From a virus (Duplodnaviria > Heunggongvirae > Uroviricota > Caudoviricetes), in the IMG/VR virus record IMGVR_UViG_3300037245_002365: 64,000 nt of DNA; one strand, 5' to 3'. Shown here piece after piece: positions 4,955 to 24,107 of this stretch. How positions within the stretch are numbered: position 1 is the first letter of the stretch; each line of letters starts with the position of its first letter. The position numbers were made by a program, and so were the translations under genes. The notes below the pieces were generated by a model that worked only from the letters and a program-made list of their open reading frames with translations, made no database searches and was not told the origin of the DNA.

Positions 4955-5449
4955 TTGAAGAAACAAGTTAAAAAACAAAAGGAGCCCTCTAAGTGGAAGG
5001 TTCAAAAGATTATCAAAAAAGGTGATTATAATTATGTGTTATTACCAGAACATCCCAATGCTACAAACAATGGTTATGTTTTGGAACACAGGGTTGTAAT
5101 GGAAAAGCATCTTAATAGGCTTTTGAACTCAAAGGAAGTTGTACATCATAAAAACGGCAATAAGAAGCAAAATGGTGTAGCAAATTTAGAAATTTTAGAT
5201 AAAGTAGAACATACAAAAAATCACCAAAAGCACAGAACTACTTCAATGATAAAATTGCAGTGCCCAAGTTGTAAAAAGGAATTTGATAGAAGAAAAGGAC
5301 AAACCCATCTACAGAAACCCCAAACTTGGACAGCTTGTTCTAGAAGTTGCAGAGGAAAGTTTTCTAGATTAATACAACTTCAAGGAAAAACCTTAGAGGT
5401 GGACAGGGCTATATCGGGGAACGTCCTCCAAGAATATGTCTTGGGATAA
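4955..5449 (+). CDS. Intron-encoded HNH homing endonuclease
   Basis: GYVLEHRVVME...VVHHKNGNK..N...NL HNH core plus C-terminal CxxC...CSxxC; start codon uncertain. Confidence 0.85.
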   Translation: MKKQVKKQKEPSKWKVQKIIKKGDYNYVLLPEHPNATNNGYVLEHRVVMEKHLNRLLNSKEVVHHKNGNKKQNGVANLEILDKVEHTKNHQKHRTTSMIKLQCPSCKKEFDRRKGQTHLQKPQTWTACSRSCRGKFSRLIQLQGKTLEVDRAISGNVLQEYVLG

Positions 5450-5574
5450 TCCCGAGCAAACTATGATAATAGGATGCGTAGAGGCCATACGCCCTGCAGC
5501 TGAAACGCTGAAGAGATGGTCCAGACCACAATACTTTAAAAGTAGTTAGTAAATGGAAAATCTAATGTGGTAGG
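4956..5574 (+). mobile_element. Group I intron with HNH ORF
   Basis: 5' exon ends in U, intron ends in G; P3 cagggc(5404)/gccctg(5491), P4 tcggg/cccga, P7 ggcca(5483)/tggtc(5517), P8 cagc/gctg, P9 accaca/tgtggt. Confidence 0.85.
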
Positions 5575-5728
5575 CTAAACTTGTAATCCCGGTTCGAGTC
5601 CGGGTAAGGGTACAAAAATAGGAAAAATAAAATGGACGTTTCATCAGCACTCGTATGTGTAATGCTATGGATAGCATTCATAACGATCGTAATGTTGGTA
5701 ATACCAACAACTAAACGGAAAGGTTATA

Positions 5729-6031
5729 ATGGCTAAAGAAAATAAAGTAGTTTGTCCTTCACAAGAGGAACTGCCTAATAACGAGGTAATTTGGCAGGGA
5801 ACTGTTGACGGAATACCTTGCAGAATAGTTTTAGGATTTAGATGGAGATTGCTACACGGCGCAGACGCGTATGAAGCCACGCCATTTTATACTTTTGAGT
5901 TGGCGAAAGAGCGGGACGCAATGCTGGAGTTGAGGTATACCGAAGCACCTAAAAGCGATATACCGGCTGAATTTATTCAAGAAGCTGCTGAAGCTTTACG
6001 AATTCAAAAAAGAAAGGTAAATGATGGCTAG
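5729..6031 (+). CDS. Hypothetical protein
   Basis: 100-aa ORF with RBS. Confidence 0.6.
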   Translation: MAKENKVVCPSQEELPNNEVIWQGTVDGIPCRIVLGFRWRLLHGADAYEATPFYTFELAKERDAMLELRYTEAPKSDIPAEFIQEAAEALRIQKRKVNDG

Positions 6032-6182
6032 ACAAAACAGACCAATGAAATACAATAAACCGTCTCCAAAGACAACCACAAGTGGTTGTGGTCACGGCGG
6101 TTCCAAAGAGGGCAAAACCAACAAAAAAGGTAGCCTTAAAAAGTATTGCGGTGGTGGCGGACCAAAAAGAAGAAAACACTAA
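6021..6182 (+). CDS. Small basic Lys/Gly-rich protein (53 aa, not in ORF track)
   Basis: RBS aaaggt; MMARQNRPMKYNKP...KKYCGGGGPKRRKH*. Confidence 0.55.
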   Translation: MMARQNRPMKYNKPSPKTTTSGCGHGGSKEGKTNKKGSLKKYCGGGGPKRRKH

Positions 6183-6188
6183 GTTTTC

Positions 6189-6274
6189 GGTGAGGTGGCC
6201 GAGTGGTCGATGGCAGCGGACTGTAAATCCGCCGGGTGTAATGCCCCTCGTAAGTTCGAATCTTACTCTCACCA
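6189..6274 (+). tRNA. tRNA-Tyr(GUA)
   Basis: gcgga-ctGTAaa-tccgc, long variable arm, acceptor ggtgagg/tctcacc. Confidence 0.95.
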
Positions 6275-6359
6275 CAAACGCAATTTTCCCGGCGTGTATT
6301 GCTATACGCAAAATACAAAGAACTTGCTTCAGGGATAAAACATTAAACCAGAAAAAACA

Positions 6360-6890
6360 ATGAAAGTTATAAACTTATTTGCAGGGCCTGGAATTGGCAA
6401 GTCTACAACAGCGGCCGGGGTTTTCTGGAAAATGAAAACACTTGGTTTTAAAGTTGAGCTTGTTACAGAATTCGCTAAGGGTCTTGTATACGCTAATGAT
6501 ATAAAATTACGTGATCAGTTATACGTATTCGCTAAACAAAATTGGAGATTATCAGTATTAGAGGGACAGGTTGATTATGCAATCACCGACTCACCACTTA
6601 TACTGAGCAATATCTATTTTGATAAACTAGACACTATGTATTCTGAAGAGTATTTTAAACCATTAGTTAAAGATACATTTGACCATTATTGGAATATCAA
6701 TTTCTTTATGAATAGAGATACTGAGACACACCCATATCAAAAGTATGGTAGAACTCAGACTTTAGAAGAAGCAAAAGAGATTGATGACAAAATAATGGAA
6801 TACTTGACCACTGAAGACATCATGTGGCATGACATAACGGTTGCAACTGCCGTCGATAATATTATCGAGGTAGTGCATCCACCGACGTAA
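6360..6890 (+). CDS. P-loop kinase/ATPase (NadR-kinase-like AAA_28 type)
   Basis: NLFAGPGIGKSTTAA, E+VTEFAK, ITDSPL, RxQT..EA motifs. Confidence 0.75.
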   Translation: MKVINLFAGPGIGKSTTAAGVFWKMKTLGFKVELVTEFAKGLVYANDIKLRDQLYVFAKQNWRLSVLEGQVDYAITDSPLILSNIYFDKLDTMYSEEYFKPLVKDTFDHYWNINFFMNRDTETHPYQKYGRTQTLEEAKEIDDKIMEYLTTEDIMWHDITVATAVDNIIEVVHPPT

Positions 6891-6906
6891 ACGAAAGGAA
6901 ACAAAA

Positions 6907-7578
6907 ATGCGTAATACTCGCTTATTTGTTTTTGCAATGATTGCTATGTTGTTCGCAACACTGGCATTTCCAACTGAACTCGATGCACAACGCCGTGGCG
7001 GTAGCAGATCACGCTCCACCAGAACACGGGTTTCACGACCCAAGACTGTAAAAGCCCCAAAGGTTACAGCAAAGAAAGCTACGACCAAAAAAGCTACCTC
7101 TGCAACAAGAGGAAGTAAAGCAACGGTGAAACGTAGCGCAACCGATCAAAAGTCTTTTAATAAGGCCAAAGCGAATGGTACTGCTTACAAGAGCAAAGCC
7201 GAAGCAACTTCAGCCTTTAAGACAAAAAACGCAGCGAAATATCCAGCAAAATACACCAGTAAACCAGCTACACGACCAGACCATATACCACAATCAACCT
7301 CTGTTGGTGGAAACACATATAATGTGTCATACAATCAAGGGATGGGTGGATACGGTTACATGGGAATATCGGGCTCGTGGATGATGTATAGTGCGATGAC
7401 TGATGTAATAATGCTAAGTACACTAATGTCCAGGAATAATTACTATTATGATCCAGTGGTCGCAGGAGCACCTGTAGCCGTGGTTCGTACCAGTAATGGG
7501 CCCGCTACACTTTTTGGTATTATTGTGATATTGGTTGTTATACTCTATTGCGTCAAATTCTTGAAAGACGACCTTTAA
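6907..7578 (+). CDS. Exported/membrane protein with Lys/Thr/Ala-rich low-complexity region
   Basis: Signal peptide-like N-terminus, C-terminal TM helix; first gene of PspA/channel cluster. Confidence 0.65.
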   Translation: MRNTRLFVFAMIAMLFATLAFPTELDAQRRGGSRSRSTRTRVSRPKTVKAPKVTAKKATTKKATSATRGSKATVKRSATDQKSFNKAKANGTAYKSKAEATSAFKTKNAAKYPAKYTSKPATRPDHIPQSTSVGGNTYNVSYNQGMGGYGYMGISGSWMMYSAMTDVIMLSTLMSRNNYYYDPVVAGAPVAVVRTSNGPATLFGIIVILVVILYCVKFLKDDL

Positions 7579-7580
7579 TC

Positions 7581-8174
7581 ATGAGCAATGATAAAGTAAC
7601 CGACTTTACAAGTATCAAGCCTGGGCAAACGATTACTTTATCAGACCAAGGGACCCTCTCTACAGCAATGGAGAGGGGCCTTGGTGCTAGTCCACAGGAT
7701 TATGAAGTAGTTGAAGTCACTACAGTCATTTTTGCTCGTGGGTTACAGTACACGCTTATTGATATAACCAATGCTAATGAAAATTTATTAGTAGTAATCA
7801 AGCAAACGGATGGAATTTTTGATTTATATGTCTATTTTCAGCCGGTAGATTTTGATCCGGGCAATAGGGTAGACATGTATAAATACGGTACTGATTTCAT
7901 GTTTGTAGAGGAAGATCTGGGAGACGATCCTGATGGATTGACGTATGCAGAAGTGATTGAGGTAGATGGTGTAGATCTTACACAAAAATCACCAATGTCC
8001 TTCACGACTAATATGACATCAACAGTGTTTGACGATCCATTAATAGTGGGTATCATTGAGTATAACACAGCGGAAGAAATGGATTACCAAAATATGTTAA
8101 TAACAGAATTTGGTGAACTGTTGTGTGTATATCAGGGTTCTGGTATCAACGCTGAAGAAATTGAAATCCTTTAA
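7581..8174 (+). CDS. Acidic protein, possibly DUF4178/YjfK-like PspA partner
   Basis: ATG 7581 within ORF 7548..8174; position directly before PspA-like gene; family call is contextual. Confidence 0.4.
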   Translation: MSNDKVTDFTSIKPGQTITLSDQGTLSTAMERGLGASPQDYEVVEVTTVIFARGLQYTLIDITNANENLLVVIKQTDGIFDLYVYFQPVDFDPGNRVDMYKYGTDFMFVEEDLGDDPDGLTYAEVIEVDGVDLTQKSPMSFTTNMTSTVFDDPLIVGIIEYNTAEEMDYQNMLITEFGELLCVYQGSGINAEEIEIL

Positions 8175-8193
8175 TAAATAGGAAGAAATACAA

Positions 8194-8862
8194 ATGAGTT
8201 TCTGGAAAACAGTAAAGAATCTCGGCCGAAAAGCGGCCAAAGAAGCTGACAAAGCTTTGAAAGACCCGGCACTTGACATGGAATTTGCTATTGAAGATAG
8301 TAAAAAGAAAGTCGAAGAGTTTCGGGGACAAGTATCAAAACTGAACGCTCATAAGAACGTTCAAACCAAGCACCTTCATGCTAAAGAGAGTAAACAAGCT
8401 TCTTTGGAAGTCTTGCTACTCAAGGCGGATGAAGCTGGTAACGAAGACGACGTAGCAACTATTGTTGCACAAATCGAAGTACTCGAAACGGACATTGAAC
8501 AGTTGAAACAACAAATTTCAACTACTGAAAAAGATGTGGATGCCGCAAGGGGCCATATCAGGCGTATTCAGCAATCTATTGATGATGCTGAAAACAATAA
8601 AGAGCGCTTGGAAGTTCGTAAAGAGAGTGCAGAAATGCGACAGGATTTGGCAAAATCGGCAGCCGGTATTGCCTCGGAAAACCCTCTTGCATCTCTTGGC
8701 AACTTGGAAAAAGAGGTGGAAGAGCAAGAAGCCCTTGCTGAATCTTTGGAAGAGGAAGGCTCCCTTACAGACGCTAGCAAGGTTGAAACCTTGGAAGAGA
8801 AGTATGCGGAAAAAACCTCAGCTTCTGACAGAATTGCCAAACTTAAGGCAAAACAAAAGTAA
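8194..8862 (+). CDS. pspA: PspA/IM30 (Vipp1) family protein
   Basis: MSFWK..., DP...+E.AIED, long coiled coil, 222 aa, LEEKY...RIAKLK C-terminus. Confidence 0.75.
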   Translation: MSFWKTVKNLGRKAAKEADKALKDPALDMEFAIEDSKKKVEEFRGQVSKLNAHKNVQTKHLHAKESKQASLEVLLLKADEAGNEDDVATIVAQIEVLETDIEQLKQQISTTEKDVDAARGHIRRIQQSIDDAENNKERLEVRKESAEMRQDLAKSAAGIASENPLASLGNLEKEVEEQEALAESLEEEGSLTDASKVETLEEKYAEKTSASDRIAKLKAKQK

Positions 8863-8884
8863 CTAAACTAACGATTGGAGTATA

Positions 8885-9907
8885 ATGAGAAAACTCATAA
8901 TAGCACTATCGCTATTCTTAGTTCCTCTAACTGCCTCGGATACTTTAAGGGTTGCACTGAAACTCAGTGCGCCCTTTGCTGTTGAAACAACAGACGGGTA
9001 TTCTGGGTTTACCGTAGAGTATTTGGAAAGAATGTTCGATAAAACCAACATAGCTTTGTCCTTTACAGGACACACTCAAGTAGATGGCACATTAACTGCC
9101 GTCAAAGTTGGAGAGGCTGATTTTGCTGCTGGATCAATATCCGTTACAAGAGAAAGAGAAGGAGCAGGCATTGACTTTGCGCTCCCTTACTTTGACTCTG
9201 GAATGGGATTGCTTGTTAAAGCGGAAGAATCTGGTGGATTCTTAGCATTCTTAATGAACAATTGGCAAACAATAGGAAGCCTGTTGTTATTTATGGCTGT
9301 AGTTGGCGTAGTTATTTGGCTCATTGAGCGAGATGGCAACCATACTAATGCTGAAGGCTCATTTAGTGACAATCCTTTAGAGGGTATTACTGCTGGATTT
9401 TGGTGGGTTTGGGTAACTATGACTACAATTGGATATGGCGATTATACTCCAAAGAAGTGGTCAGGTAGAGTAATTACTATCATTGTGTTTACATTTGGTG
9501 TTTATCTATTTGGATCAGCACTAAGTAACATGGTTGATAATAAATTGCACCAAACATCATCCATTGCTGAACTCGTAGATGTATACAAACTAAGTGTTGC
9601 AGGTATAACTGGAACAACTAGTGAAGATATAGTTACAGAGATTTGTAAAAATCCGGTTTTATATGGCTCACTAGAGGAAGCTAAAGCGGCTCTTGATGCA
9701 GGTAAAGTTGATGCCGTCGTTTACGACTGGCCTATACTGCATTTGCAACAAGATGAAAGTACGTTACTATTGCCTATTAGATTTAATAAGCAATATTATA
9801 GCATTGCATTCCCGGATAACAGTATGTTAATTGAATTGTTTAATCTATTTCAATTAGACATGTTGGAATCTGGTGAGTATAATAAGCTATATAATAAATA
9901 CTTCTAA
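8885..9907 (+). CDS. Ligand-gated K+ channel (GluR0-like: split solute-binding domain around a 2-TM pore)
   Basis: Signal peptide, SBP S1 (..ISVTRERE..IDFALPYFDSG), TM1, WW.WVTMTTIGYGD filter, TM2, SBP S2 (GKVDAVVYD, YSIAFP). Confidence 0.85.
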   Translation: MRKLIIALSLFLVPLTASDTLRVALKLSAPFAVETTDGYSGFTVEYLERMFDKTNIALSFTGHTQVDGTLTAVKVGEADFAAGSISVTREREGAGIDFALPYFDSGMGLLVKAEESGGFLAFLMNNWQTIGSLLLFMAVVGVVIWLIERDGNHTNAEGSFSDNPLEGITAGFWWVWVTMTTIGYGDYTPKKWSGRVITIIVFTFGVYLFGSALSNMVDNKLHQTSSIAELVDVYKLSVAGITGTTSEDIVTEICKNPVLYGSLEEAKAALDAGKVDAVVYDWPILHLQQDESTLLLPIRFNKQYYSIAFPDNSMLIELFNLFQLDMLESGEYNKLYNKYF

Positions 9908-9915
9908 AGTATTAA

Positions 9916-9999
9916 AGGCCCGTCGCATAGTCTGGTTTATTGCACCGGTCTCCAAAACCGGTCCGTAAGGAATCCTGGGTTCAAATCCTAGCGGGTCTG
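9916..9999 (+). tRNA. tRNA-Trp(CCA) with 13-nt variable arm
   Basis: aggcccg/cgggtct acceptor; ccggt-ctCCAaa-accgg; variable tccgtaaggaatc. Confidence 0.88.
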
Positions 10000-10024
10000 C
10001 TACAACAAAAAACAACAAGGTAAA

Positions 10025-10234
10025 ATGCTACATATTACACAAGACGATGAAACAGGGATAGGAACAATTTATGTTAGCGATAACATAGATACTCCTATAG
10101 GAGAATCTCGCGATTCTGAGTTCGGGGAGTTTATATTTAATTACAGCGATTCAGGTGAATTAATAAGCATCAACTATTTAAGTATAGACGATTTAATAGA
10201 GTTCATAACTGTTTACGCAGTACCAAAACAATAA
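10025..10234 (+). CDS. Small acidic protein (DUF2283-like)
   Basis: YV.D.....ES......I.NYSDSGELISI pattern. Confidence 0.45.
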   Translation: MLHITQDDETGIGTIYVSDNIDTPIGESRDSEFGEFIFNYSDSGELISINYLSIDDLIEFITVYAVPKQ

Positions 10235-10240
10235 CGCTAA

Positions 10241-10380
10241 GCGGCCATGGCGGAACTGGTAGACGCACAAGACTTTTTAAAACATGGACTGTTTATAGAA
10301 ACCTTGATCAGAGCGATTCTGATAGTCCAGCAAAATCTTGCGCCCGAGAGGGCATCCCGGTTCGAGTCCGGGTGGCCGTA
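10241..10380 (+). tRNA. tRNA-Leu (probably UAA) with ~56-nt insertion in the anticodon loop
   Basis: Leu-type D-loop gcggaactggtagacgc, anticodon stem caaga/tcttg, variable arm gccc-gaga-gggc, A73; insert about 10276..10331. Confidence 0.8.
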
Positions 10381-10386
10381 CAAAAT

Positions 10387-10463
10387 ACTCACATAACTCA
10401 GTCTGGTAGAGTGCAACGCTGATAACGTTGTGGCCGGTGGTTCGAATCCATCTGTGAGTACCA
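10387..10463 (+). tRNA. tRNA-Ile(GAU), CCA encoded
   Basis: caacg-ctGATaa-cgttg; actcaca/tgtgagt + aCCA. Confidence 0.95.
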
Positions 10464-10494
10464 ACAATTAACATAAATAAAGTCTGGAGAGTAA

Positions 10495-10815
10495 ATGAGT
10501 TCAGGATTAAATCTTGATCTGTACAAACAAGTACAGGAAGAAAGAGAAAAGCTTGGATTAACAGTTATTCCAAATAACCATGTTGTCAAGATAAAAGGAC
10601 ACGAACTTTTAAAAAAGCAGGCTTATAACACCAACAACGAAAGAATTTATCACATTGTAGGTGTACATAAGCAATGGTGTGATGGCTGGTTCCTAGTCCT
10701 ATCTCTAGAAAAGAATGGGACGCTTAGACAATGTTTTATAGATAACATTAGCTGCCAGAACAAATCAATCTTACTTACTATTAATTCTCATAGAGAAATA
10801 TTTGAGGTTTTATAA
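10495..10815 (+). CDS. Hypothetical protein
   Basis: 106-aa ORF coupled to pncB. Confidence 0.55.
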   Translation: MSSGLNLDLYKQVQEEREKLGLTVIPNNHVVKIKGHELLKKQAYNTNNERIYHIVGVHKQWCDGWFLVLSLEKNGTLRQCFIDNISCQNKSILLTINSHREIFEVL

Positions 10816-11996
10816 TGGAACACTTTCTTGATAATGACATGTATAAGCTGTCTATGCAGAATTTGGCAGTACGGCAATTTCCAGATGATTACGCTAGATA
10901 TGAGTTCTTTAATCGTGGTGGCACACCAATTCCAAAGGAAATTGGAGAGTCTATACACACTGATATACAGAGCTTTGCCGATTTTAATCTTGAGGCACTG
11001 CCTTTATCGTGGCTTAGAGAAGCCTTACCATTTTTGTCACCGATGTATCTTGACTTCCTTAAAGGGTATAGGTTTGATGCATCTGAAGTCAAAATGGGAT
11101 ATCCAGACGGGGATGATGATCTGAAAATACATATTGAGGGACCATGGTATCGTACCATTTTATGGGAAGTACCTCTGATGGCTTTAATTTCAGAAAATTA
11201 TTTTAAGTACACTGGACAAACTCCTTTCGGAATAAGAAAGGGTGATTGGCCTGCTGTTTGGATGGAGATTAAAAAGAAGAGTGTTGAAAAGGCAAAGTTG
11301 ATTGATGGGTACGATCTTACTGTCGCTGACTTTGGTACGCGACGTAGATACTCGCCTAGAGTTCATGATGCAATGATGGAATCATTAGGCAACCATTTGG
11401 TTGGATCTAGTAATGTTTGGCAGGCTATGACCTACAGAACAAAGCCTATTGGTACTCATGCTCATGAATGGTTTCAATTTCACGCTGCAAAGTATGGATA
11501 TGTTTCAGCAAACAGAATGGCACTGGAAAATTGGTCAAGGGGTTATCGAGGCAATCTCGGTATTGCTCTTACAGACACATTCACTACGGATGTTTTTCTG
11601 CGGGACTTTGATGCCTATTATGCCAAACTATTTGATGGAGTACGGCACGATAGTGGTGATCCTTATGAATTTGCTAACAAAATCATAGGTCATTATGACA
11701 ATTTAGGCATTGATCCAAAATCAAAGACAATTGTCTTTTCAGATAATTTAACTGTTGAAAAAGCAGTAAAAATATCTGAAACACATAAGGACCACATTAA
11801 ATGTTCCTTTGGTATTGGCACACACTTAACAAACGATGTTGGAGTTAAACCTCTAAACATGGTTATTAAGTTAACCGGTGTTAGAGCGGCTGACGGCAGT
11901 TGGAAAGAAGCAATCAAACTATCAGACGATGTTGGAAAGCATACTGGTAGTGAGGAAGAAATTAAACTATGTAAGGAAACATTGGATGTCAAGTAA
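10815..11996 (+). CDS. pncB: Nicotinate phosphoribosyltransferase
   Basis: DNDMYKLSMQ, DFGTRRRYS, GTHAHEW, TDTFTT, GVRHDSGDP, VFSDNL, FGIGTHLTND, KLSDD.GKHTG. Confidence 0.92.
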   Translation: MEHFLDNDMYKLSMQNLAVRQFPDDYARYEFFNRGGTPIPKEIGESIHTDIQSFADFNLEALPLSWLREALPFLSPMYLDFLKGYRFDASEVKMGYPDGDDDLKIHIEGPWYRTILWEVPLMALISENYFKYTGQTPFGIRKGDWPAVWMEIKKKSVEKAKLIDGYDLTVADFGTRRRYSPRVHDAMMESLGNHLVGSSNVWQAMTYRTKPIGTHAHEWFQFHAAKYGYVSANRMALENWSRGYRGNLGIALTDTFTTDVFLRDFDAYYAKLFDGVRHDSGDPYEFANKIIGHYDNLGIDPKSKTIVFSDNLTVEKAVKISETHKDHIKCSFGIGTHLTNDVGVKPLNMVIKLTGVRAADGSWKEAIKLSDDVGKHTGSEEEIKLCKETLDVK

Positions 11997-12774
11997 TTTA
12001 CGAGTGGAAATGAATCAAGTAACAGCTTGGATCAAGGAAACCGTTGAGAAAGCCGGAGCACACGGAGTTGTACTAGGACTGAGTGGTGGAATTGATTCCG
12101 CTGTTGTAGGAGCACTATGCGTAGAAGCATTGGGTTCTGACCACGTACTTCCGGTAGCTATGCCAGCAATTAACACTGGAGCACCGCTGAAAGATCACGT
12201 TGTAGATATGTTTGAATATCTTAACTGTGATAAATTCATACTGCCTGTTAGTGTTTCTGTTTTTACTGAAAGCGCAATAAGAGGAACACACGGATCTCAA
12301 AAACTTCGTATGGGTAATACAGCAGCAAGAATGCGAATGATTCATTTGTATAATCTTGCTAGTGCTTACGGGTATTTGGTTATCGGTACGGAAAATCTGA
12401 CTGAGAAATGGTTAGGTTACGCCACTAAGCACGGCGACGCAGCAAGTGACATGGAGCCACTTACTAGCTTTGATAAACTCGAAGTTAGAGAAATGGCTAC
12501 ATTATTTGATCCACCAATTCCAATGAGTGTGCAAGAAAGGGCACCAAGTGCTGAGTTATGGCCTGGACAAACGGATGAAGACGAGATTGGCGCTAAGTTT
12601 GAAGACATGGTCGCTTATCATAGGCATTGTGAGCATCCTATCGAAGATAGGAGTGAGTGTCCAGTAACTGACGAAATTCGTCAATTATTAGACGCCAGAG
12701 TATTAGCGAACATGCATAAGTCATTGCCAAAACCTGAGTTTGAAAGGACTTGTTCCATTCTCTCATTATCATAA
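11986..12774 (+). CDS. nadE: NH3-dependent NAD+ synthetase
   Basis: LGLSGGIDSAVV, GNTAARMRM, VIGTEN, GYATKHGD, PSAELWPGQTDEDE; likely ATG at 11986. Confidence 0.92.
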   Translation: MSSNLRVEMNQVTAWIKETVEKAGAHGVVLGLSGGIDSAVVGALCVEALGSDHVLPVAMPAINTGAPLKDHVVDMFEYLNCDKFILPVSVSVFTESAIRGTHGSQKLRMGNTAARMRMIHLYNLASAYGYLVIGTENLTEKWLGYATKHGDAASDMEPLTSFDKLEVREMATLFDPPIPMSVQERAPSAELWPGQTDEDEIGAKFEDMVAYHRHCEHPIEDRSECPVTDEIRQLLDARVLANMHKSLPKPEFERTCSILSLS

Positions 12775-12782
12775 GGGTATAA

Positions 12783-13010
12783 GTAATCAAAATAAGAACA
12801 AAAACAATAGGGTGGATAGCAACAGCATTTTCTGTTACAGCAGCCGTATTGGTTGCTTACAAGATTATCTGGTGCTGGCCTCTGTTTATTGTATCAGCAA
12901 TAATACAAATCTATTTGAATGTAAAGTCGAGACTACCATCACAGGTTTTCCTGTGGACGGTATTCTTACTGACTAACATATTAGGTTGGTATAACTGGGC
13001 AACAATGTAG
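12783..13010 (+). CDS. PnuC-like nicotinamide riboside transporter-like small membrane protein; no ATG/GTG/TTG start near the 5' end
   Basis: Stop-to-stop frame translates IGWIATAFSVTAAVLVAYKIIWCWPLFIVS...QVFLWTVFLLTNILGWYNW; directly after nadE. Confidence 0.55.
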   Translation, partial: VIKIRTKTIGWIATAFSVTAAVLVAYKIIWCWPLFIVSAIIQIYLNVKSRLPSQVFLWTVFLLTNILGWYNWATM

Positions 13011-13065
13011 AAGAAAAGATTTGGCGGTACCATTCGGTGCCGCCAATAATATAATAAGGAGTTTT

Positions 13066-13395
13066 ATGAGTAATGCATGCGAAGGTTGTGGCGTTTGTTG
13101 TAAAGCTTTTATTACAAAAAATAGAAATAATTGGGCTAAAAAGCATTTGATAAAATTAAGTAAGAAACAAGTTCTTTCTTTAAATATAATACAGGAAGAA
13201 ATGATATCAGTAGTTTTTGACAATAATAGTTTCTATCAGACGTGTGATTTATATGATGAAGTAACTGGAAAATGCACAGATTATGATAATAGGCCATACA
13301 TGTGTACCTCTTTTCCTCATAATGAGGGAGCCCCACATGGTTATAAAGTTGCTTGTAAATTAAGTGTAGAAAAATTTAGTAAAGAACACAAATAA
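13066..13395 (+). CDS. YkgJ-family Cys-cluster (Zn/Fe-chelating) protein
   Basis: CEGCGVCC...C.LYD...GKC.DY.NRP.MC..FP; RBS aaggag before ATG 13066. Confidence 0.8.
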   Translation: MSNACEGCGVCCKAFITKNRNNWAKKHLIKLSKKQVLSLNIIQEEMISVVFDNNSFYQTCDLYDEVTGKCTDYDNRPYMCTSFPHNEGAPHGYKVACKLSVEKFSKEHK

Positions 13396-14027
13396 TGAAA
13401 GGAAATATAAAAAACGAAAATAAAATGAATACATTTTTTACAGCTGACCTACATTTAGGTCATGCAAATATTATTAAATACTGCAATAGACCTTTTAGGT
13501 CTGTTGAAGAGATGGATAGTACCATCATAAACAATTGGAATAGTGTGGTAACACCAGATGACTATGTGTATATATTGGGAGATTTATCTTTCAACGATCA
13601 TTTAAACTACTTACATAGACTAAATGGTAAGAAAGCCTTAATTATAGGCAATCATGATAAGCTATCTATAGGAGCTAGACAAACATATACATTTATAACC
13701 CCGCTAACTGATATTAGGCACGAAGGCCAAAGAATAACACTTTGTCATTACCCGATGCTAGCGTGGAACGGATCGTTTCATGGATCATGGCATTTATATG
13801 GGCATGTGCATGGAAACTCGATAGAACAGGAATATAAATATTCCTGCGATGTTGGAACTGATATTTGGAATTACTTCCCAGTATCATTTGAAACCATTAA
13901 AAAGAAAATGGCTACAAAAGTACAAGAATTTGATTTCAATAGTCAAGAAGCACAAGCTGCTAGAAATGACATAAGAGATACAAGAAGAAGTACGCAATCT
14001 GATGAAAATCAAACCTATTTGGATTAA
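13395..14027 (+). CDS. Calcineurin-like metallophosphoesterase
   Basis: ADLHLGH, LGD, GNHD, CHYP, HLYGHVH. Confidence 0.88.
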   Translation: MKGNIKNENKMNTFFTADLHLGHANIIKYCNRPFRSVEEMDSTIINNWNSVVTPDDYVYILGDLSFNDHLNYLHRLNGKKALIIGNHDKLSIGARQTYTFITPLTDIRHEGQRITLCHYPMLAWNGSFHGSWHLYGHVHGNSIEQEYKYSCDVGTDIWNYFPVSFETIKKKMATKVQEFDFNSQEAQAARNDIRDTRRSTQSDENQTYLD

Positions 14028-14042
14028 CCATCCAAATACTAT

Positions 14043-14115
14043 GCTCGATTAGCTCAGTTGGTAGAGCACTCGGCTTACATCCGAGTTGTCGGCAGTTCGA
14101 GCCTGTCATCGAGTA
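14043..14115 (+). tRNA. tRNA-Val(UAC)
   Basis: ctcgg-ctTACat-ccgag; full cloverleaf. Confidence 0.95.
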
Positions 14116-14135
14116 CAAAATAAATTGGTAAACGC

Positions 14136-14164
14136 TTGACATACTCGTTATTTGTGCGTATATT
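14136..14164 (+). promoter_or_regulatory. Sigma70-type promoter giving a leaderless HNH mRNA
   Basis: TTGACA-17-TATATT then 5 nt to ATG 14170. Confidence 0.75.
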
Positions 14165-14169
14165 AGAGT

Positions 14170-14616
14170 ATGAATAAATATCGTACACAAGAATGGGAAA
14201 CCAAAATTATTGAAGCCTGTAAAGACGCACATAGTATGGCACATGCTTGCGCTTCAATAGGCATGAACCATAACACGTTTATAGTACATGCCAAACGTTT
14301 AGGAGTTTACACCACTAACCAAGGAGGTAAAGGAACTAACAAACCCAAACCTTCAATACCACTTAGTGAAATTATATATAAAGGAATTCAACCACAATAT
14401 AGAAGCAGTAACTTAAGAGTACGTCTTATTAAAGAAGGCATAAAGGAATATAAATGTGAAAAATGTGAAAAAGTTGAGTGGATGGGTAAACCAATACCAC
14501 TAGAACTACATCATTTGGACGGTAACAGTCATAACCATTTATTAGAAAACTTACAGTTACTTTGTCCCAATTGTCATACACTTACCGACAATTACGGATC
14601 TAAAAACAAAAAATAG
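14170..14616 (+). CDS. HNH endonuclease
   Basis: CEKC...LELHHLDGNSHNH.LENLQLLCPNCH. Confidence 0.9.
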   Translation: MNKYRTQEWETKIIEACKDAHSMAHACASIGMNHNTFIVHAKRLGVYTTNQGGKGTNKPKPSIPLSEIIYKGIQPQYRSSNLRVRLIKEGIKEYKCEKCEKVEWMGKPIPLELHHLDGNSHNHLLENLQLLCPNCHTLTDNYGSKNKK

Positions 14617-14622
14617 ATTTAA

Positions 14623-14761
14623 GCTCCCCTGGGGGAATTGGTAGACCCGCCAGATTTAATTGCATGGACTGCTTTAATGAAAAGTTTAATTGGAGCAATA
14701 CCAACAGTTCAACGGATCTGGTGCCCGAAAGGGCGTGTCGGTTCGAGTCCGACGGGGAGTA
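14623..14761 (+). tRNA. tRNA-Leu (probably UAG) with ~55-nt insertion in the anticodon loop
   Basis: D-loop gggaattggtagaccc, anticodon stem ccaga/tctgg, variable arm gccc-gaaa-gggc, A73; insert about 14659..14713. Confidence 0.8.
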
Positions 14762-14817
14762 CGAGAATAGCAATAACAATACTCAAAAACGTAAAATTAA
14801 AACAAGGAACACAAGCT

Positions 14818-15060
14818 ATGACCAAAGTAGGAGATACTTTCACGAACACGGCTTTCAAGGAAAAGATGACAGTTACGAAAGTCACCGAAGAAGAAATAAA
14901 CTTAACATCTGTTCCAGGTTCAGAGGAATTCGTGGATATAATGGTTAAGCCAGCATACCTAAAAAAACTTCTTGAAAAAGGAGCATGGGTTGCTGAGGTT
15001 GTGGAAGCACCGAAAAAGAAGAAAAGAAAACGTCGGCGTAAGAAAAAGAAGAAAGAGTAA
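14818..15060 (+). CDS. Small protein with poly-Lys/Arg tail
   Basis: ATG 14818 within ORF 14638..15060 (upstream part overlaps the tRNA). Confidence 0.55.
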   Translation: MTKVGDTFTNTAFKEKMTVTKVTEEEINLTSVPGSEEFVDIMVKPAYLKKLLEKGAWVAEVVEAPKKKKRKRRRKKKKKE

Positions 15061-15062
15061 AC

Positions 15063-15293
15063 ATGGATATCAAAGAACAAATACTTTTAGATTTTGAAAA
15101 TTTTGGACTAAGTGCAATATTTAATCACGAACAAGCAGAGATTGCCTTAGACATGGCTAACGAAGACCCTAATTTATCAATAGAAAGATCACTTACCGGG
15201 TTGGCTGACTGGGTTATTGTAAATAGATTTAAAAAGAAGAGAGTAGAGGCGATTCTATTTAGATCTGAGTTTGGCTTATATGGACATCCATGA
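15063..15293 (+). CDS. Hypothetical protein
   Basis: 76-aa ORF. Confidence 0.5.
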   Translation: MDIKEQILLDFENFGLSAIFNHEQAEIALDMANEDPNLSIERSLTGLADWVIVNRFKKKRVEAILFRSEFGLYGHP

Positions 15294-15648
15294 GTTCATA
15301 GGTGACTACGACTTCTTAAGTAATGATTATGAATCACCAATTACGTATGGTAGTAGAAATTTTTCTACCGTTAGTGAGGCTTTCCAGTCATCTAGTAGCC
15401 TTCTTAGGAGGCCGGAGACTTGGGAGACTCGTCAAGTAATTGTAATGAGAGCAATAGTCTTTAGAAAATTTTTGCAAAATGCTAACTTGGCAACCAAGTT
15501 AGTATCAACAGACACAACCCCATTGATTAATGGTGGAGCATGGCAAGACCCTTTTTGGGGCTATGACACCATACAAAAATTTGGGGAAGACCATTTAGGA
15601 GTAATCCTAATGAAAATAAGAGCATTTTTAATGTGGACAGGAGTATAA
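15271..15648 (+). CDS. NADAR (YbiA-like) family protein, short form
   Basis: FLSN.Y.SPI, KF.QN..L...L..T, W.DPFWG, G..HLG.ILM.IR. Confidence 0.75.
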   Translation: MAYMDIHEFIGDYDFLSNDYESPITYGSRNFSTVSEAFQSSSSLLRRPETWETRQVIVMRAIVFRKFLQNANLATKLVSTDTTPLINGGAWQDPFWGYDTIQKFGEDHLGVILMKIRAFLMWTGV

Positions 15649-15649
15649 T

Positions 15650-15937
15650 ATGACTTTAATGGAATATTTTGACGAGGCAATTATAAAAAAATACATATCA
15701 GAGGACCTTTTCTGGGTAAGTCTTTGTAGAAGTTTATTTAGAATGGCATTCTTTGTATTTGTGGTATTTTTAACAGCTTGTTTTGCTGCATTTCCAGTAA
15801 AATGGTTATGGAATTGGGTAATGCCTATTATATTTGACTTACCTACTATAACTGCTGCGCAAGGCTGGGGACTAACATTCCTTGGTTCCTTTTTAACTAA
15901 AGGTGGCGGAGACTATACTAAAGCTGAAGTTAAATAG
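15650..15937 (+). CDS. Membrane protein
   Basis: WLWNWVMP.IF.LP.IT..Q.WGL hydrophobic pattern. Confidence 0.6.
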   Translation: MTLMEYFDEAIIKKYISEDLFWVSLCRSLFRMAFFVFVVFLTACFAAFPVKWLWNWVMPIIFDLPTITAAQGWGLTFLGSFLTKGGGDYTKAEVK

Positions 15938-15945
15938 TAAGAATC

Positions 15946-16035
15946 GGAGAGTTGGCTGAGTGGTTTAAAGCGGCAGATTGCTAATCTGTTTATCGCCTTC
16001 GGGCGGTACGGTGGGTTCAAATCCCCCACTCTCCT
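15946..16035 (+). tRNA. tRNA-Ser(GCU)
   Basis: gcaga-ttGCTaa-tctgt, long variable arm, one T-stem mismatch. Confidence 0.9.
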
Positions 16036-16053
16036 CAAATAAAGGAAATTATA

Positions 16054-16365
16054 ATGAGATGGAATACTTACGGCGACTTTAAGGCATCAGCCCTATTGGC
16101 TGAGATATTAACTAAACTTGATAACAAACAGCAAATTAAAAAAATTGGAAGATTTTTTACTGGATATTTTGGAAACATTAAGCAATTACGTGGCTTCCAT
16201 AATAATAAGTTAAAAAAACACCTTATTATTGCAACAAAAGAAGATTACTTACGCAGGGCGTCTGAATCAAAACATATTTCTGGTCAAAAAGAAATAGAAA
16301 ACTTTGTAAGAAACATAATTATGGCTCGATGTAGAGAAGAGCTAAGAAGGGCAAATAAAAAATGA
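16054..16365 (+). CDS. Hypothetical basic protein
   Basis: 103-aa ORF with RBS. Confidence 0.55.
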   Translation: MRWNTYGDFKASALLAEILTKLDNKQQIKKIGRFFTGYFGNIKQLRGFHNNKLKKHLIIATKEDYLRRASESKHISGQKEIENFVRNIIMARCREELRRANKK

Positions 16366-16559
16366 GCACAGGAAGCGGTTGTGATTGGCGACGCGGTTTA
16401 GGGCTAGAACAAAAAACCGTTGTCACACGAGATGATATCGAAGAAGCCCATAATAGGCTATCAAAAGAAGCAAATAAATTAGAAGGTACACAGCATTATG
16501 GAATGCACGTAGCTCTATCAACCTTCTTAGCTTTAGCTAGAGCAGAGGTTCCAGAATAA
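16362..16559 (+). CDS. Hypothetical protein
   Basis: 65-aa ORF translationally coupled to neighbours. Confidence 0.5.
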   Translation: MSTGSGCDWRRGLGLEQKTVVTRDDIEEAHNRLSKEANKLEGTQHYGMHVALSTFLALARAEVPE

Positions 16560-16939
16560 TGGAATTTAACTCAAGAAAATTAATAAAGCCAGCAGATCTT
16601 AACCCAAGAGAAACTCTCTTTGGTGGACAACTTCTGGCTTGGATCGACGAAGAGGCCGCGATCTTTGTAACAGAGTATTTGGAAACGCCTCTAATAGTTA
16701 CTAAATACATAGATGAAATTGATTTTGTAGCTCCTGCATTTAAAGGAGATATAATAGAAATTGGTATTGAACTTGTTTCCGTCGGAAACACGTCGGTAAC
16801 AGTTAAATGTGTAGTAAGAAACCTTACTACTAAAAACAATATTATAGAAGTTAACAAACTAACTTTTGTAAGAATTGGTGCTGATGGACATTCTAAACCG
16901 CATGGTAAAGATCAGTTTCAGACTAGAGATATATTATAA
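16559..16939 (+). CDS. Acyl-CoA thioesterase (HotDog fold)
   Basis: P.DLN...LFGGQLLAWIDE.A, IDFVAPA..GDII, VGNTS. Confidence 0.85.
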   Translation: MEFNSRKLIKPADLNPRETLFGGQLLAWIDEEAAIFVTEYLETPLIVTKYIDEIDFVAPAFKGDIIEIGIELVSVGNTSVTVKCVVRNLTTKNNIIEVNKLTFVRIGADGHSKPHGKDQFQTRDIL

Positions 16940-16956
16940 TATAACCAAAATAAAAA

Positions 16957-17352
16957 ATGAATGACCCACAAGTCACAGTAACGCTTAGTATAGACGTTGG
17001 ATTCGGAGAACCGGCACACGTTTCAGTTAGCGCACACCCATATGAAATAAAAGACGCAGTATTAAAAGCAAGAGAAGCAGCTATATATGGATTACTTGGA
17101 AAAATACAAGTAGATAAAAATAAAGCAAAGTATGCAGCTAAAAAACTTGAAGAAGCTAAAGCAGAACTAGATGAAAAAGTACGTTATGCAACAGCAGATG
17201 AAGTAGAATTCATAACAGAGCGATATTTGAGAGACTACGGTATGTATGTGGATGGCAATTTACATGTCACAGGAGAAGTTACTTGTGAAAATAACGTAAC
17301 AACCTTCACAAGCGGTCCACACAACACTCTAAAATGTTGTATTAACAGATAA
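16957..17352 (+). CDS. Hypothetical protein
   Basis: 131-aa ORF. Confidence 0.55.
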   Translation: MNDPQVTVTLSIDVGFGEPAHVSVSAHPYEIKDAVLKAREAAIYGLLGKIQVDKNKAKYAAKKLEEAKAELDEKVRYATADEVEFITERYLRDYGMYVDGNLHVTGEVTCENNVTTFTSGPHNTLKCCINR

Positions 17353-17364
17353 GAGTTCTTTAAA

Positions 17365-17404
17365 GGCAGGACATATTTAAACTAAAGTATGTCTTGCCTT
17401 TTGA
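17365..17404 (+). terminator. Intrinsic terminator overlapping the -35 box of the next promoter
   Basis: ggcaggacata/tatgtcttgcc stem followed by tttt; TTGCCT(17394)-17-TATATT(17417), 5 nt to ATG 17428. Confidence 0.7.
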
Positions 17405-17427
17405 TTTAAGAATGTTTATATTTAAAC

Positions 17428-17925
17428 ATGAGACAAAGAACAAGCCCAATATGGGCAATATCAAAAGAAGAACTAACTAAAGTTGTTAATGAAGAAACAT
17501 CACTTACTGGCGTATTAAGACATTTTGGTTTAGTTAATAAGGGCCGCAATAGCCATACACTAAAAAAACGTTTAGAAGAAGACAATATAGATTATTCACA
17601 CATTAAATTAGGCCTAGCTTCTAATAAAGGAAGAGGTTTTCCAAATAGAATAAAAACCCCATTAGAAGAAATATTGGTAAAAAAGTCATCATTTAATAGA
17701 TGTCATCTAAAAAAACGTCTTCTATCAGACAAACTGTTAAAAAATATATGTTATAAATGTGGTCAATTGCCTATTTGGGATAATGCCCTATTAGTGCTTC
17801 AGTTAGACCATATAAATGGTATTCCTGATGATAATAGAATAGAAAATTTACAAATGTTGTGTCCCAATTGTCACTCACAAACATCCACTTTTGCTGGTAA
17901 AAATACTAGATCAGGGATCGTCTAA
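17428..17925 (+). CDS. HNH endonuclease (stop codon lies inside tRNA-Gln)
   Basis: CYKC...LQLDHINGI..DNRIENLQMLCPNCHSQT. Confidence 0.9.
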   Translation: MRQRTSPIWAISKEELTKVVNEETSLTGVLRHFGLVNKGRNSHTLKKRLEEDNIDYSHIKLGLASNKGRGFPNRIKTPLEEILVKKSSFNRCHLKKRLLSDKLLKNICYKCGQLPIWDNALLVLQLDHINGIPDDNRIENLQMLCPNCHSQTSTFAGKNTRSGIV

Positions 17926-17981
17926 CGGCAGGACATCACGCTTTGACCGTGACGATGGTGGTTCGAATCCGCCTCCCTGAA
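17911..17981 (+). tRNA. tRNA-Gln(UUG)
   Basis: U1-A72, tcacg-ctTTGac-cgtga, T-loop ttcgaat. Confidence 0.92.
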
Positions 17982-18085
17982 CGAGGAAAAAATAAATGGA
18001 AAAACTAAACCCAGGACTGGAACGATCCTTTTTTTACAATATGGGACATGCTAACAGGCCAGACCTAAAAAATAAAGAGAATACT

Positions 18086-21836: not shown

Positions 21837-22883
21837 ATGCAGTTTACTAAATATAGTGGCATTGAGAATTCATACAGAGAGAAATTTTTACAATTCATTC
21901 AGTATAGAGGTTTGGCTGATCCAGCAATTCTTTGGCACGCTACAGAAAAGGTTCACGGAGCAAACTTTGCTCTATACTACGATGGTGAAACGCTAGAAGC
22001 GGCAAAACGTAGTGGCTTCATTAGAGGCCAAGAAATAGAAAACTTCTTTCATTCTGATGTTATTATTGATGATATTAGAGATAGAATTATCGAATTAGCT
22101 AACGAGGTACTCGCTGACAACGAAGGTGTTGTTACGGTTGCAGTATGTGGAGAACTGTTTGGTGGGATTTACCCACACAAGGACGTTCCAAACAATAACG
22201 CTGCGAAAAAAGTACAAAAGGAAGTTTTTTATAGCCCTAATTTACATTTTTATGGATTTGACATCAGACTGTTTACAGAAGATGGCGAGTCTACATTTAT
22301 GGAACTGAACAAGGCATATGCCTTGTTTGAAAAATACGATATTTTTTACTCAATGCCGAAACTTTCTGGCACTTTAAAAGAGTGTTTAGAATGTGGCTGT
22401 GAGTTTCAGACAACAATCCCAGCGAGACTCGGACTGCCTGAAATAGAGGACAACATCTGCGAAGGTCTTGTTCTGTCACCAAACTTACCAATGTTCCTGC
22501 CAAGCGGATCAAGAGTTATTCTTAAGAATAAGAATGCGAAACACTCTGAGAAAGCTAGCGGGAAAAGCGGTGAAAAGAAAGAACTAGTACAAATCTCAAT
22601 GAGTGACGAAGGCAAAGCAATTTACGAAGAGCTTGAAGCCTGTGTCACAGAAAATAGGTTACGCAATGTGTTATCACATATTGGCGAAGTAACCTTCAGA
22701 GATTTTGGCAAAATTCTTGGTGCCTTCTCACAAGACGTTAGAGAAGAAATTTTAAAAGATAAAAAAGAAGAATACGATGCTCTGGAGAAACCAGAGCAAA
22801 AGATCATCAACAAATGGGTTAATGGTAAATGCTCTGAATTAATCAGAGATAACTTAGCAAATATTGTTGATGGCATGTTTTAA
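21837..22883 (+). CDS. RNA ligase, Rnl2 family
   Basis: YSGIENSY, EKVHGANF (motif I), GELFGG, FYGFDI, EGLVL, LKNKN. Confidence 0.88.
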   Translation: MQFTKYSGIENSYREKFLQFIQYRGLADPAILWHATEKVHGANFALYYDGETLEAAKRSGFIRGQEIENFFHSDVIIDDIRDRIIELANEVLADNEGVVTVAVCGELFGGIYPHKDVPNNNAAKKVQKEVFYSPNLHFYGFDIRLFTEDGESTFMELNKAYALFEKYDIFYSMPKLSGTLKECLECGCEFQTTIPARLGLPEIEDNICEGLVLSPNLPMFLPSGSRVILKNKNAKHSEKASGKSGEKKELVQISMSDEGKAIYEELEACVTENRLRNVLSHIGEVTFRDFGKILGAFSQDVREEILKDKKEEYDALEKPEQKIINKWVNGKCSELIRDNLANIVDGMF

Positions 22884-22900: not shown

Positions 22901-23185
22901 ATGTACGCGTATAGATACAAACACTATAGGAGTAACCACGAAAGGTTCACAGATTTATTAGATGACCTAGCAGCCACTGGTGCCACACTTCCAAATAAAA
23001 TTCAAGCAATAACTGTTTGTGTTATGGAAGAAGTAGGTACTCAGCGTCAGCTTGGTGTAGGAGCTGCTTTCTGCAGCGATAAAGATCAGTTTAGCAAGCG
23101 AAAAGGACGGCAACTAGCCAGAGATAGAGCTATGCATAACAGAGCATTTCGAGAGATGGTTGCAGAAACAACCGAAAATGAATAA
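22901..23185 (+). CDS. Hypothetical phage protein
   Basis: G.AFCS.KDQFSKR.GR.LA..RA motif. Confidence 0.6.
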   Translation: MYAYRYKHYRSNHERFTDLLDDLAATGATLPNKIQAITVCVMEEVGTQRQLGVGAAFCSDKDQFSKRKGRQLARDRAMHNRAFREMVAETTENE

Positions 23186-24107
23186 ACTTTATATATATTC
23201 TGGTATACCAGCTAGCGGCAAAAGTACCGCAGCAATAAAATTGCAAAATACACAGCGTGGAAAGTTGAAAAGAGTAAATAGGGATTCCCTTAGACTCATG
23301 CTCGATGCGAATGAATGGTCGCCAAAAAACGAGAAACTCGTTAAATCGACCAGAGATTTTATAATCGAGCAAAGCCTCAAAAGAGGTTATGATGTCGTCT
23401 GTGATGACACCAACTTGAGCGCGAAAAATAATAATGGTCTTCTTGCGATAGCGAGGAGAGTAGGGGATATACAAGTTATAAACAAGTTCTTCCCCATCGA
23501 TCTCAAAACCGCTCTTAAGCGGAATGAAGATCGTGAAGATAAAGTAGGTAAAGACGTAGTTACAAATTTCTATAACAAGTACATTAAAGGTGGAAAATTT
23601 AAACCATTTGACACCCAATACTTCCCAATAGTTGTGAATACGTCTGACACTTTATTGCCATATGATCCCGATTTGCCAGACTGTATCATCTGTGATATAG
23701 ACGGCACTTTAGCACATATGACGGACAGAAGTCCGTATGACGGAGAAGCGTGTGCATCTGATGTATTAGATATGGCGGTATCAAATGTACTGCAAACATA
23801 CAAGATGGCATATGCTGATTTGACAGAGGAACTTAGACCAAAGATATTTTTATTCTCTGGTCGTAACGGTGAGTCTGAACCACAAACGCGGAATTGGCTG
23901 AAAGCCAACCATGTTCCGTTCGATGAATTGCATATGAGGAAGCCAGGAGATATGAGAAAAGACAGCGTCATTAAAGGTGAACTGCTTGATAAACATATTA
24001 TTGGTAAATATAATGTGATATTTTGTCTAGATGATAGAGACCAAATGATACATTATTACCGTGATAAGGGATTAAAGGTTTTTCAAGTTGCTTATGGCGA
24101 CTTTTAG
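23178..24107 (+). CDS. Polynucleotide 5'-kinase/3'-phosphatase (T4 PseT-like)
   Basis: GIPASGKST, VNRDSLR, DDTN, then HAD DIDGT, FSGR, DDR.Q. Confidence 0.92.
   Translation: MNKLYIYSGIPASGKSTAAIKLQNTQRGKLKRVNRDSLRLMLDANEWSPKNEKLVKSTRDFIIEQSLKRGYDVVCDDTNLSAKNNNGLLAIARRVGDIQVINKFFPIDLKTALKRNEDREDKVGKDVVTNFYNKYIKGGKFKPFDTQYFPIVVNTSDTLLPYDPDLPDCIICDIDGTLAHMTDRSPYDGEACASDVLDMAVSNVLQTYKMAYADLTEELRPKIFLFSGRNGESEPQTRNWLKANHVPFDELHMRKPGDMRKDSVIKGELLDKHIIGKYNVIFCLDDRDQMIHYYRDKGLKVFQVAYGDF

Follow-up and report, generated by a model that had tools for sequence, protein, structure and literature searches.

The question raised by this locus is whether a phage tRNA-Leu gene whose anticodon loop is interrupted by 55 nt can give a working tRNA and, if so, by which route the insert is removed. 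To our knowledge, self-splicing (group I, rarely group II) is the sole known route of tRNA intron removal in bacteria and their viruses. An intron of 55 nt that has no catalytic core, and is conserved and covarying in otherwise perfect tRNA genes, points either to an unrecognised splicing route, by proteins or a new ribozyme, or to interrupted tRNAs that are kept for another purpose. The window, that is, the whole 64-kb stretch of DNA analysed here, comes from a marine-sediment metagenome, where it belongs to a contig of 228 kb, and its content is jumbo-phage-like, with a tRNA cluster and tmRNA, NAD salvage, several HNH endonucleases, and an RNA-repair block.

The interrupted gene, denoted LeuB, lies at positions 14623–14761 on the + strand and is a class II tRNA-Leu(UAG) with G37, where the 55-nt insert at 14659–14713 is placed between A35 and G36. 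The 5′ exon (14623–14658), which was delimited using ARAGORN with introns and an alignment with Erwinia phage FBB1, consists of the acceptor strand, the D arm, the stem strand CCAGA, and the loop residues U32 to A35. The 3′ exon (14714–14761, from ARAGORN) consists of G36, G37 and A38, the stem strand UCUGG, the long variable arm, the T arm, the acceptor strand, and the discriminator A, and is followed by a trailer CGA. When 14659–14713 is removed, the anticodon arm becomes CCAGA-UUUAGGA-UCUGG; among contiguous deletions, this register is the only one that yields a Leu loop. Over their full length, the exons can be aligned with the tRNA-Leu(UAG) of FBB1, which is intronless and has the anticodon arm CCAGA-UUUAGGU-UCUGG. 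The string that the earlier note had given for the insert is correct, as is its statement that excision leaves the Leu UAG loop UUUAGGA.

The second gene, LeuA, is a tRNA-Leu(UAA) with A37 on the same strand, where a 56-nt insert (10276–10331) is placed between U34 and A35. Its 5′ exon (10241–10275, from ARAGORN with introns) ends in C32, U33 and U34, and its 3′ exon (10332–10380, from ARAGORN) begins with A35, A36, A37 and A38, both being consistent with the comparison with relatives; the Rfam tRNA model spans LeuA across a 59-nt insertion. The default setting of ARAGORN found ten tRNAs in the window, none of which was a tRNA-Leu, and the intron-aware setting added two, a tRNA-Leu(tag) at 14623–14762 with a 55-nt intron and a tRNA-Leu at 10241–10381 with a 56-nt intron. 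After the in-silico excision, LeuA and LeuB are both called by default ARAGORN as perfect class II tRNA-Leu cloverleaves, with canonical 7-nt loops, U33, and the expected residue at position 37, namely A37 after UAA and G37 after UAG. The two genes are the sole Leu tRNAs in the cluster. This matters for annotation, as default tRNA finders miss both genes and the phage would wrongly seem to be free of tRNA-Leu.

Four related-phage contigs were reached via the proteins flanking LeuA. One of them, L278, is a syntenic 84-kb scaffold whose neighbouring proteins are approximately 49% identical, and its LeuA orthologue carries a 56-nt insert at the matching place. In L279, the LeuA orthologue (2899–2980) has no insert, and its anticodon arm is ACAGA-CUUAAAA-UUUGU. 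This intronless allele, with the loop CUUAAAA, fixes the borders of the LeuA intron at 10276–10331 and the mature product as a tRNA-Leu(UAA) with A37. LeuA is absent from L348, and no recognisable copy of LeuB was found in L278 or L309. A stretch of L278 that follows an HNH gene was considered as a decayed LeuB and was rejected, because 42 of 1000 shuffles align as well as it does, which is not significant. Among the contigs of the likely source DNA run, the source contig only was recovered, and no intronless variant was found. The exons of L278 and L279 are identical at 69 of 82 positions, compared with 67/84 between the window and L278 and 61/82 between the window and L279. Since L278 and L279 are the closest pair by their exons, the intron was either precisely lost in the L279 lineage or laterally moved. 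A separate feature of L278 is a tRNA with a CUA anticodon at 3108–3185, of the amber-suppressor type (labelled Pyl by ARAGORN), which lies just upstream of tRNA-Cys and has no counterpart in the window.

The inserts of LeuA and LeuB are identical at 37 of 58 aligned positions (about 64%). The global alignment score is 28, whereas shuffled sequences give −5.5 ± 6.5 and none of 5000 shuffles reaches 28; the homology of the inserts, which the earlier note had claimed and for which it had proposed an alignment and a covariance model, is thereby supported. The resulting covariance model of the mini-intron, R1, scores the LeuA copy at 97.6 bits and the LeuB copy at 76.6 bits. Within the 64 kb, exact matches to the 9-mer CATGGACTG are limited to 10283 and 14663, the equivalent place in both inserts. 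The features that had been listed as common to the two, i.e., CATGGACTG, AGTYCARC, two hairpins, and a GCRAT loop, were all found in both.

The three copies of the intron (LeuA of the window, LeuA of L278, and LeuB) share one architecture, consisting of a closing helix, a weak hairpin 1, a linker of 5–6 nt, and hairpin 2. In LeuB, for which the borders rest on the sequence, intron-aware ARAGORN, the fold and R1, the 5′ tail (14659–14664) is followed by the 5′ strand UGGACUG of the closing helix (14665–14671), hairpin 1 (14672–14684), the linker (14685–14689), hairpin 2 (14690–14704), the 3′ strand CAGUUCA of the closing helix (14705–14711), and the 3′ tail AC (14712–14713). In LeuA, the 5′ tail (10276–10284) is followed by the closing helix (10285–10291 paired with 10323–10329), which encloses hairpin 1 (10292–10301), the linker (10302–10307), and hairpin 2 (10308–10322), and the 3′ tail is GC (10330–10331). 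The closing helix has 7 bp, U/G-GGACUG with YAGUYC-A/U, and hairpin 2 has 5 bp (in LeuB, 4 bp and an A-A mismatch) and abuts the 3′ strand of the closing helix with zero spacer. A comparison of the LeuA and LeuB copies shows partial conservation of the GCRAU loop motif and the linker. In the closing helix of LeuB (14666–14671 with 14705–14710), the third position is a G-U pair, corresponding to the acceptor G3-U70 position, where the LeuA copies have G-C; this is probably a coincidence.

The pairing was evaluated over the three sequences. The 18 modelled pairs give 54 cells, each of which is a standard pair, and both sides are changed in five of the pairs; when the partner positions are shifted by 1–3 columns as a control, pairing falls to 23–45%. 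The observation in the earlier note that the hairpin sequences differ and yet still pair holds in hairpin 2, where C-G is exchanged with U-A and A-U with G-C between the copies, and the compensatory changes extend to the closing helix, where G-C becomes G-U and G-U becomes G-C. RNAalifold, unaided, recovers the anticodon stem, the closing helix, and hairpin 2, and also lengthens the anticodon stem slightly, by pairing the U-run with the bases at the start of the 3′ exon. No further helix of at least 4 bp and no pseudoknot common to all three sequences was found. The covariation over three sequences is supportive of the fold, short of proof. The divergence of the LeuB copy from the LeuA copy with the fold being kept argues for long-term selection on what would be an intron RNA.

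Between the LeuA genes of the window and L278, 49 of 56 intron positions are identical, compared with 67 of 84 exon positions. The closing helix, hairpin 1, the linker, and the stem of hairpin 2 are identical, and all seven differences are confined to the 5′ tail, the loop of hairpin 2, and the 3′ tail. The exon differences are mainly paired changes, by which the acceptor and anticodon stems are kept, and the flanking bases CUU/AAAA are identical in three lineages. The earlier note had spoken of a conserved element rather than decay, and had regarded a lack of further homologues as evidence to the contrary; a homologue does exist in L278, with a core more conserved than the exons, and the precise intronless allele of L279, the covarying pairs, and the intact exons also argue against decay. 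The mobility and the enzymatic recognition of the element, which the same note had raised, may both apply. The identical core in the window and L278 could also stem from recent lateral transfer, which would weaken the argument that the tRNA was functional with the intron. As judged from the sequences, the structured mini-intron family in two tRNA-Leu isoacceptors, at two anticodon positions and with a natural intronless allele, is real.

We consider that the inserts of LeuA and LeuB are spliced introns, with a probability of roughly 70%. Splicing is favoured because the bases flanking the inserts are exactly those of a working loop, because an intronless allele exists in L279 and excision restores tRNA-Leu genes, because the exons of the window and L278 keep their stems via paired changes, and because LeuA and LeuB are the sole Leu tRNAs of the cluster. 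That the removal takes place at the RNA level by a protein-based cut-and-join route is put forward tentatively, as the favoured proposal, with slightly less than even chances. In this proposal, LeuA and LeuB would be transcribed as precursors of about 140 nt, in which the intron would fold unaided, the 7-bp closing helix being stacked on the 5-bp hairpin to give 12 bp, like an acceptor/T-arm stack. The minihelix would then be the handle for protein endonucleases. The 3′ cut would fall right after the R-C tail in all three copies, and the 5′ cut would fall in the AU-rich single strand 6–9 nt upstream of the helix. The exons would be sealed by the Rnl2-type ligase of the phage, and the ends would be healed by Pnkp if needed. 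At the DNA level, the intron is either present or absent as one discrete unit, which the free-standing HNH endonucleases nearby may spread or maintain.

In each of the three copies, exactly 2 nt separate the closing helix from the 3′ splice site, the sequences being G-C^A, A-C^A, and A-C^G. The stack is thus followed by a purine-C that resembles N73-C74 and matches the 3′ ends of the tRNAs of this phage, which suggests that an enzyme processing CCA-less tRNA ends could make the 3′ cut. All 12 tRNAs of the window (778–17982) end in N73-C-N-A, mostly with CAA or CGA (also CUA), and CCA is encoded by tRNA-Ile only. Most tRNAs of L278 also end in a discriminator followed by C-N-A, while three calls fit less cleanly. 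The conserved C74 and A76 with a non-C residue at position 75 imply an unusual route of 3′-end maturation and CCA repair. The 7-bp helix abutting a 5-bp hairpin may resemble an acceptor/T-arm stack in all three copies; however, the loop of hairpin 2 is not a canonical T-loop, and the tRNA model gives no match to the intron. The resemblance to tRNA-like mature ends is confined to the 3′ end of the intron, as a leader of 6–9 nt lies between the 5′ splice site and the helix.

In LeuA, the 5′ splice site is located 9 nt upstream of the helix and 3 nt from the anticodon stem; in LeuB, the two distances are 6 nt and 4 nt. A simple structural ruler fails for this site because both distances vary. Several candidates for the cuts were tried and rejected. 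RNase P acting on the minihelix would cut 6–9 nt downstream of the true 5′ splice site. Staggered cuts of the RNase III type would leave overhangs of the wrong polarity, and the geometry is not the same in LeuA and LeuB. An internal guide could pair with the 5′ exon over at most 4 bp, and this pairing is not conserved. An RNase E-like rule of cutting before WUU fits both 5′ sites; however, it also fits neighbouring positions in the U-run, and its precision is insufficient. No candidate intron-cutting endonuclease was found in the window. The more general possibility that there are ribozyme-free phage tRNA introns, in which proteins such as end-trimming enzymes of CCA-less tRNAs read a tRNA-like minihelix and a phage RNA-repair ligase rejoins the exons, is regarded as somewhat doubtful. 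If true, it would mean protein-only tRNA splicing in the bacterial world, independent of the archaeal and eukaryal endonuclease system.

Genes for an Rnl2-type ligase and Pnkp are located 7–9 kb downstream of LeuB. The T4 Rnl2-family RNA ligase (21837–22883, + strand) matches the Pfam models RNA_ligase and T4_Rnl2_C as well as PDB 2hvq (E = 6.6e-29), with the motif I lysine aligned, and may be the candidate for the exon-sealing enzyme. The polynucleotide kinase-phosphatase Pnkp (23160–24107, + strand; Pfam HAD_PNKP, E = 2.7e-43; PDB 4xrp and 1ltq) may likewise be the candidate for the end-healing enzyme. Among solved structures, the best relative of this Pnkp is 4xrp, the Pnkp1 in the bacterial RNA repair complex Pnkp1-Rnl-Hen1, and T4 Pnkp comes after it. 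The RNA-repair genes also include a nucleotidyltransferase of the RlaP family, as found in RNA-repair systems, at 24837–25802 on the + strand (Pfam PF10127, E = 5.7e-12), which is mentioned for context only. T4-type Rnl2 prefers nicks in duplex RNA, which counts against the sealing by Rnl2, and Pnkp and Rnl genes are common in large phages without tRNA introns. In T4, Pnkp and Rnl1 reseal a tRNA cut in the anticodon loop, which is the repair of host-inflicted damage. The present phage is similar to T4 in that it encodes Pnkp and an RNA ligase; the differences are that the proposed process would be a constitutive splicing and that the phage ligase belongs to the Rnl2 type instead of Rnl1. As an experimental system, it is small and well defined, with two substrates that differ in splice position, a natural intronless control, and a candidate ligase and Pnkp on the contig.

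A free-standing HNH endonuclease gene (14170–14616, + strand) ends 6 nt before LeuB. The Pfam HNH match is weak (E = 0.0018, below the cut-off), and the C-terminal HNH motif was read directly. This endonuclease is a possible DNA-level partner of the intron. Free-standing HNH genes at 14170–14616, 17428–17925, and 29135–29614 end at or within a few bases of the starts of LeuB, tRNA-Gln, and tmRNA, respectively, and the three look like homing endonucleases that target RNA genes. In collaborative homing, ORF-less introns are combined with free-standing endonucleases, and the known cases are self-splicing group I introns (reviewed in PMC3984707). The HNH gene 6 nt from LeuB, together with the pattern of presence and absence, would fit such collaborative homing, as the ORF-less LeuB intron lies beside a free-standing HNH gene. 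The differences are that LeuA has no adjacent HNH gene and that the introns here are not of group I. In addition, tRNA-Arg(UCU) (4921–5612) is split after U34 by an insert of approximately 616 nt, which contains an HNH ORF (4955–5449) and ends in G; with the Rfam group I model, this insert stays below the gathering score. A derivation of the mini-intron from this insert was rejected, as 833 of 1000 and 404 of 1000 shuffles score as well.

If the intron were a new small ribozyme, it would self-cleave at one or both junctions, or self-splice, and the exons would be joined by a ligase (Rnl2 and Pnkp of the phage, or the host RtcB) or by the reverse reaction. Such a ribozyme is improbable in our estimation. 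The conservation of the primary sequence beyond pairing agrees with it, since the window and L278 share an unchanged core despite 17 differences over 84 exon positions, as does the partial conservation of the GCRAU loop and the linker between the LeuA and LeuB copies, and Pnkp would suit the 2′,3′-cyclic phosphate and 5′-OH ends that a ribozyme leaves. However, most of the 55 nt are in plain helices and few unpaired positions are conserved between the copies, the extra helix or pseudoknot mentioned above is lacking, and both splice sites are outside the folded core with a spacing that differs between the tRNAs. The Rfam ribozymes are also unmatched, even in a search space of 58–60 nt; cmscan of the intron alone with E up to 10 gave no known self-cleaving ribozyme (hammerhead, twister, pistol, hatchet, hairpin, or HDV-like), and none of the Rfam families overall matches the intron, even when it is searched alone. 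A group I or group II identity was rejected owing to the far too small size, the 3′-terminal C, and the lack of a model match. A degenerate group I remnant, either trans-spliced by another ribozyme core or non-functional, is very improbable for similar reasons: 55–56 nt cannot hold a P3–P8 core (group I introns usually have at least 200 nt), each of the three copies ends in C instead of G, the base before the 5′ splice site of LeuB is A instead of U, the Rfam group I model (RF00028) gives no match at any threshold, and there is no significant similarity to the tRNA-Arg insert. What recommends the remnant is the insertion site of LeuA, U34/A35, which we take to be the classical group I site of the cyanobacterial and plastid tRNA-Leu(UAA), and the long HNH-bearing insert after U34 of tRNA-Arg(UCU) in the same phage; the helix GGACUG/UAGUCC also recalls what we assume to be the group I P7 consensus, which is a lead only. 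The LeuA intron shares with this cyanobacterial and plastid intron the site and the presence/absence polymorphism, but the mini-intron is about five times too small, it has neither a catalytic core nor a terminal G, it matches no model, and the LeuB copy lies one position further on. An association with homing endonucleases in phage genomes is a further shared trait (PMC3984707).

The insert could also be selfish DNA that is never spliced, for example, one that destroys the target of a neighbouring homing endonuclease and leaves a pseudogene or a tRNA-like RNA, such as a decoy for anticodon nucleases or a non-decoder chargeable by LeuRS. This is judged unlikely. No splicing machinery was identified in the window, HNH genes abut several RNA genes, and the tRNA content varies among the relatives (LeuA is absent from L348, and LeuB from L278 and L309), all of which speak for such an insert. 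In contrast, the loop residues next to the inserts are exactly what a working tRNA has (CUU/AAAA, shared by three lineages, and UUUA/GGA, as in FBB1), the exon stems are all intact, the covarying RNA helices would be needless for a DNA-only element, there is neither a target-site duplication nor a terminal repeat beyond the RNA helix, and the phage has no other Leu tRNA in the cluster. A MITE or transposon was rejected on the same ground, as no duplication flanks either insert and the sole inverted repeat is the covarying RNA helix. The size and the anticodon-loop location are typical of an archaeal- or eukaryal-type bulge-helix-bulge intron cut by an EndA-like endonuclease, but this is hardly to be expected here. 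Two 3-nt bulges around a 4-bp helix cannot be drawn at the junctions, nor do the MFE folds contain them, and the consensus fold has an asymmetric internal loop of 7–8 nt versus 2 nt from the anticodon stem to the closing helix. The positions are 34/35 and 35/36 instead of 37/38, the phage tmRNA points to a bacterial host, and a scan of about 40 proteins of the window revealed no EndA domain.

Further copies of the mini-intron were searched for in several data sets. R1 gave no match in 116 phage loci carrying Leu-like tRNAs and, with filters off, only the known copies in the whole window and the 9 kb upstream on the contig. BLAST against INPHARED, for near and distant matches, gave only ordinary matches to tRNA-Leu exons; a match in Ralstonia phage RsoM2USA proved to be an ordinary, unannotated tRNA-Leu. 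In IMG/VR, the pattern CATGGACTG...AGTYCA gave chance matches only, CATGGACTG combined with the T arm gave no insert-bearing tRNA, an internal-motif pattern gave 10 chance matches in coding DNA, and a pattern of the LeuA junction gave 81 matches, none of which is in a tRNA. The exact 27-nt core had no matches in either IMG/VR or the JGI metagenomes. A degenerate pattern gave 29 matches in the JGI metagenomes, none fitting R1, and 36 matches in the GTDB genomes were without significance under R1. Relatives in IMG/VR that were sought via the NAPRTase protein amounted to one locus, which is tRNA-free. The mini-intron family thus looks confined to one jumbo-phage lineage, as far as these searches reach.

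Within the literature that could be searched, short non-group-I tRNA introns in phages are described solely for Lak megaphages, where they are called "enigmatic" (Devoto et al. 2019, PMC6784885), and nothing closer was found. The Lak introns are alike in that they interrupt phage tRNA genes, are short and highly conserved and contain no ORF, that they were found by intron-aware re-prediction of over-long tRNAs, and that related genomes differ by their presence or absence (PMC6784885). They are unlike in that they belong to gut Prevotella megaphages (PMC6784885), whereas the present phage is a marine-sediment jumbo phage, and in that one family occurs here in two isoacceptors at two anticodon positions. 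One Lak intron is tRNA-shaped (PMC6784885), while the mini-intron forms a three-way junction and goes unrecognised by the tRNA model.

Two observations were made on other IMG/VR sequences. Among the matches listed, more than 100 phage loci (L151–L266) have genes with Leu-like acceptor, D, and T arms; many of these start with AGTCAGG and end with CCTGACT, and have in the middle a variable stretch of 60–90 nt with no obvious anticodon arm. In L169 (455 kb), a tRNA-Leu(UAA) at 7827–7982 is interrupted by an unrelated insert of 71 nt, placed at the loop site used in LeuA (CUU^...^AAAA) or one base before it. The fold of this insert is a cloverleaf of four arms, in which one loop of 7 nt is anticodon-like and another, UGCGAAU, is T-like.
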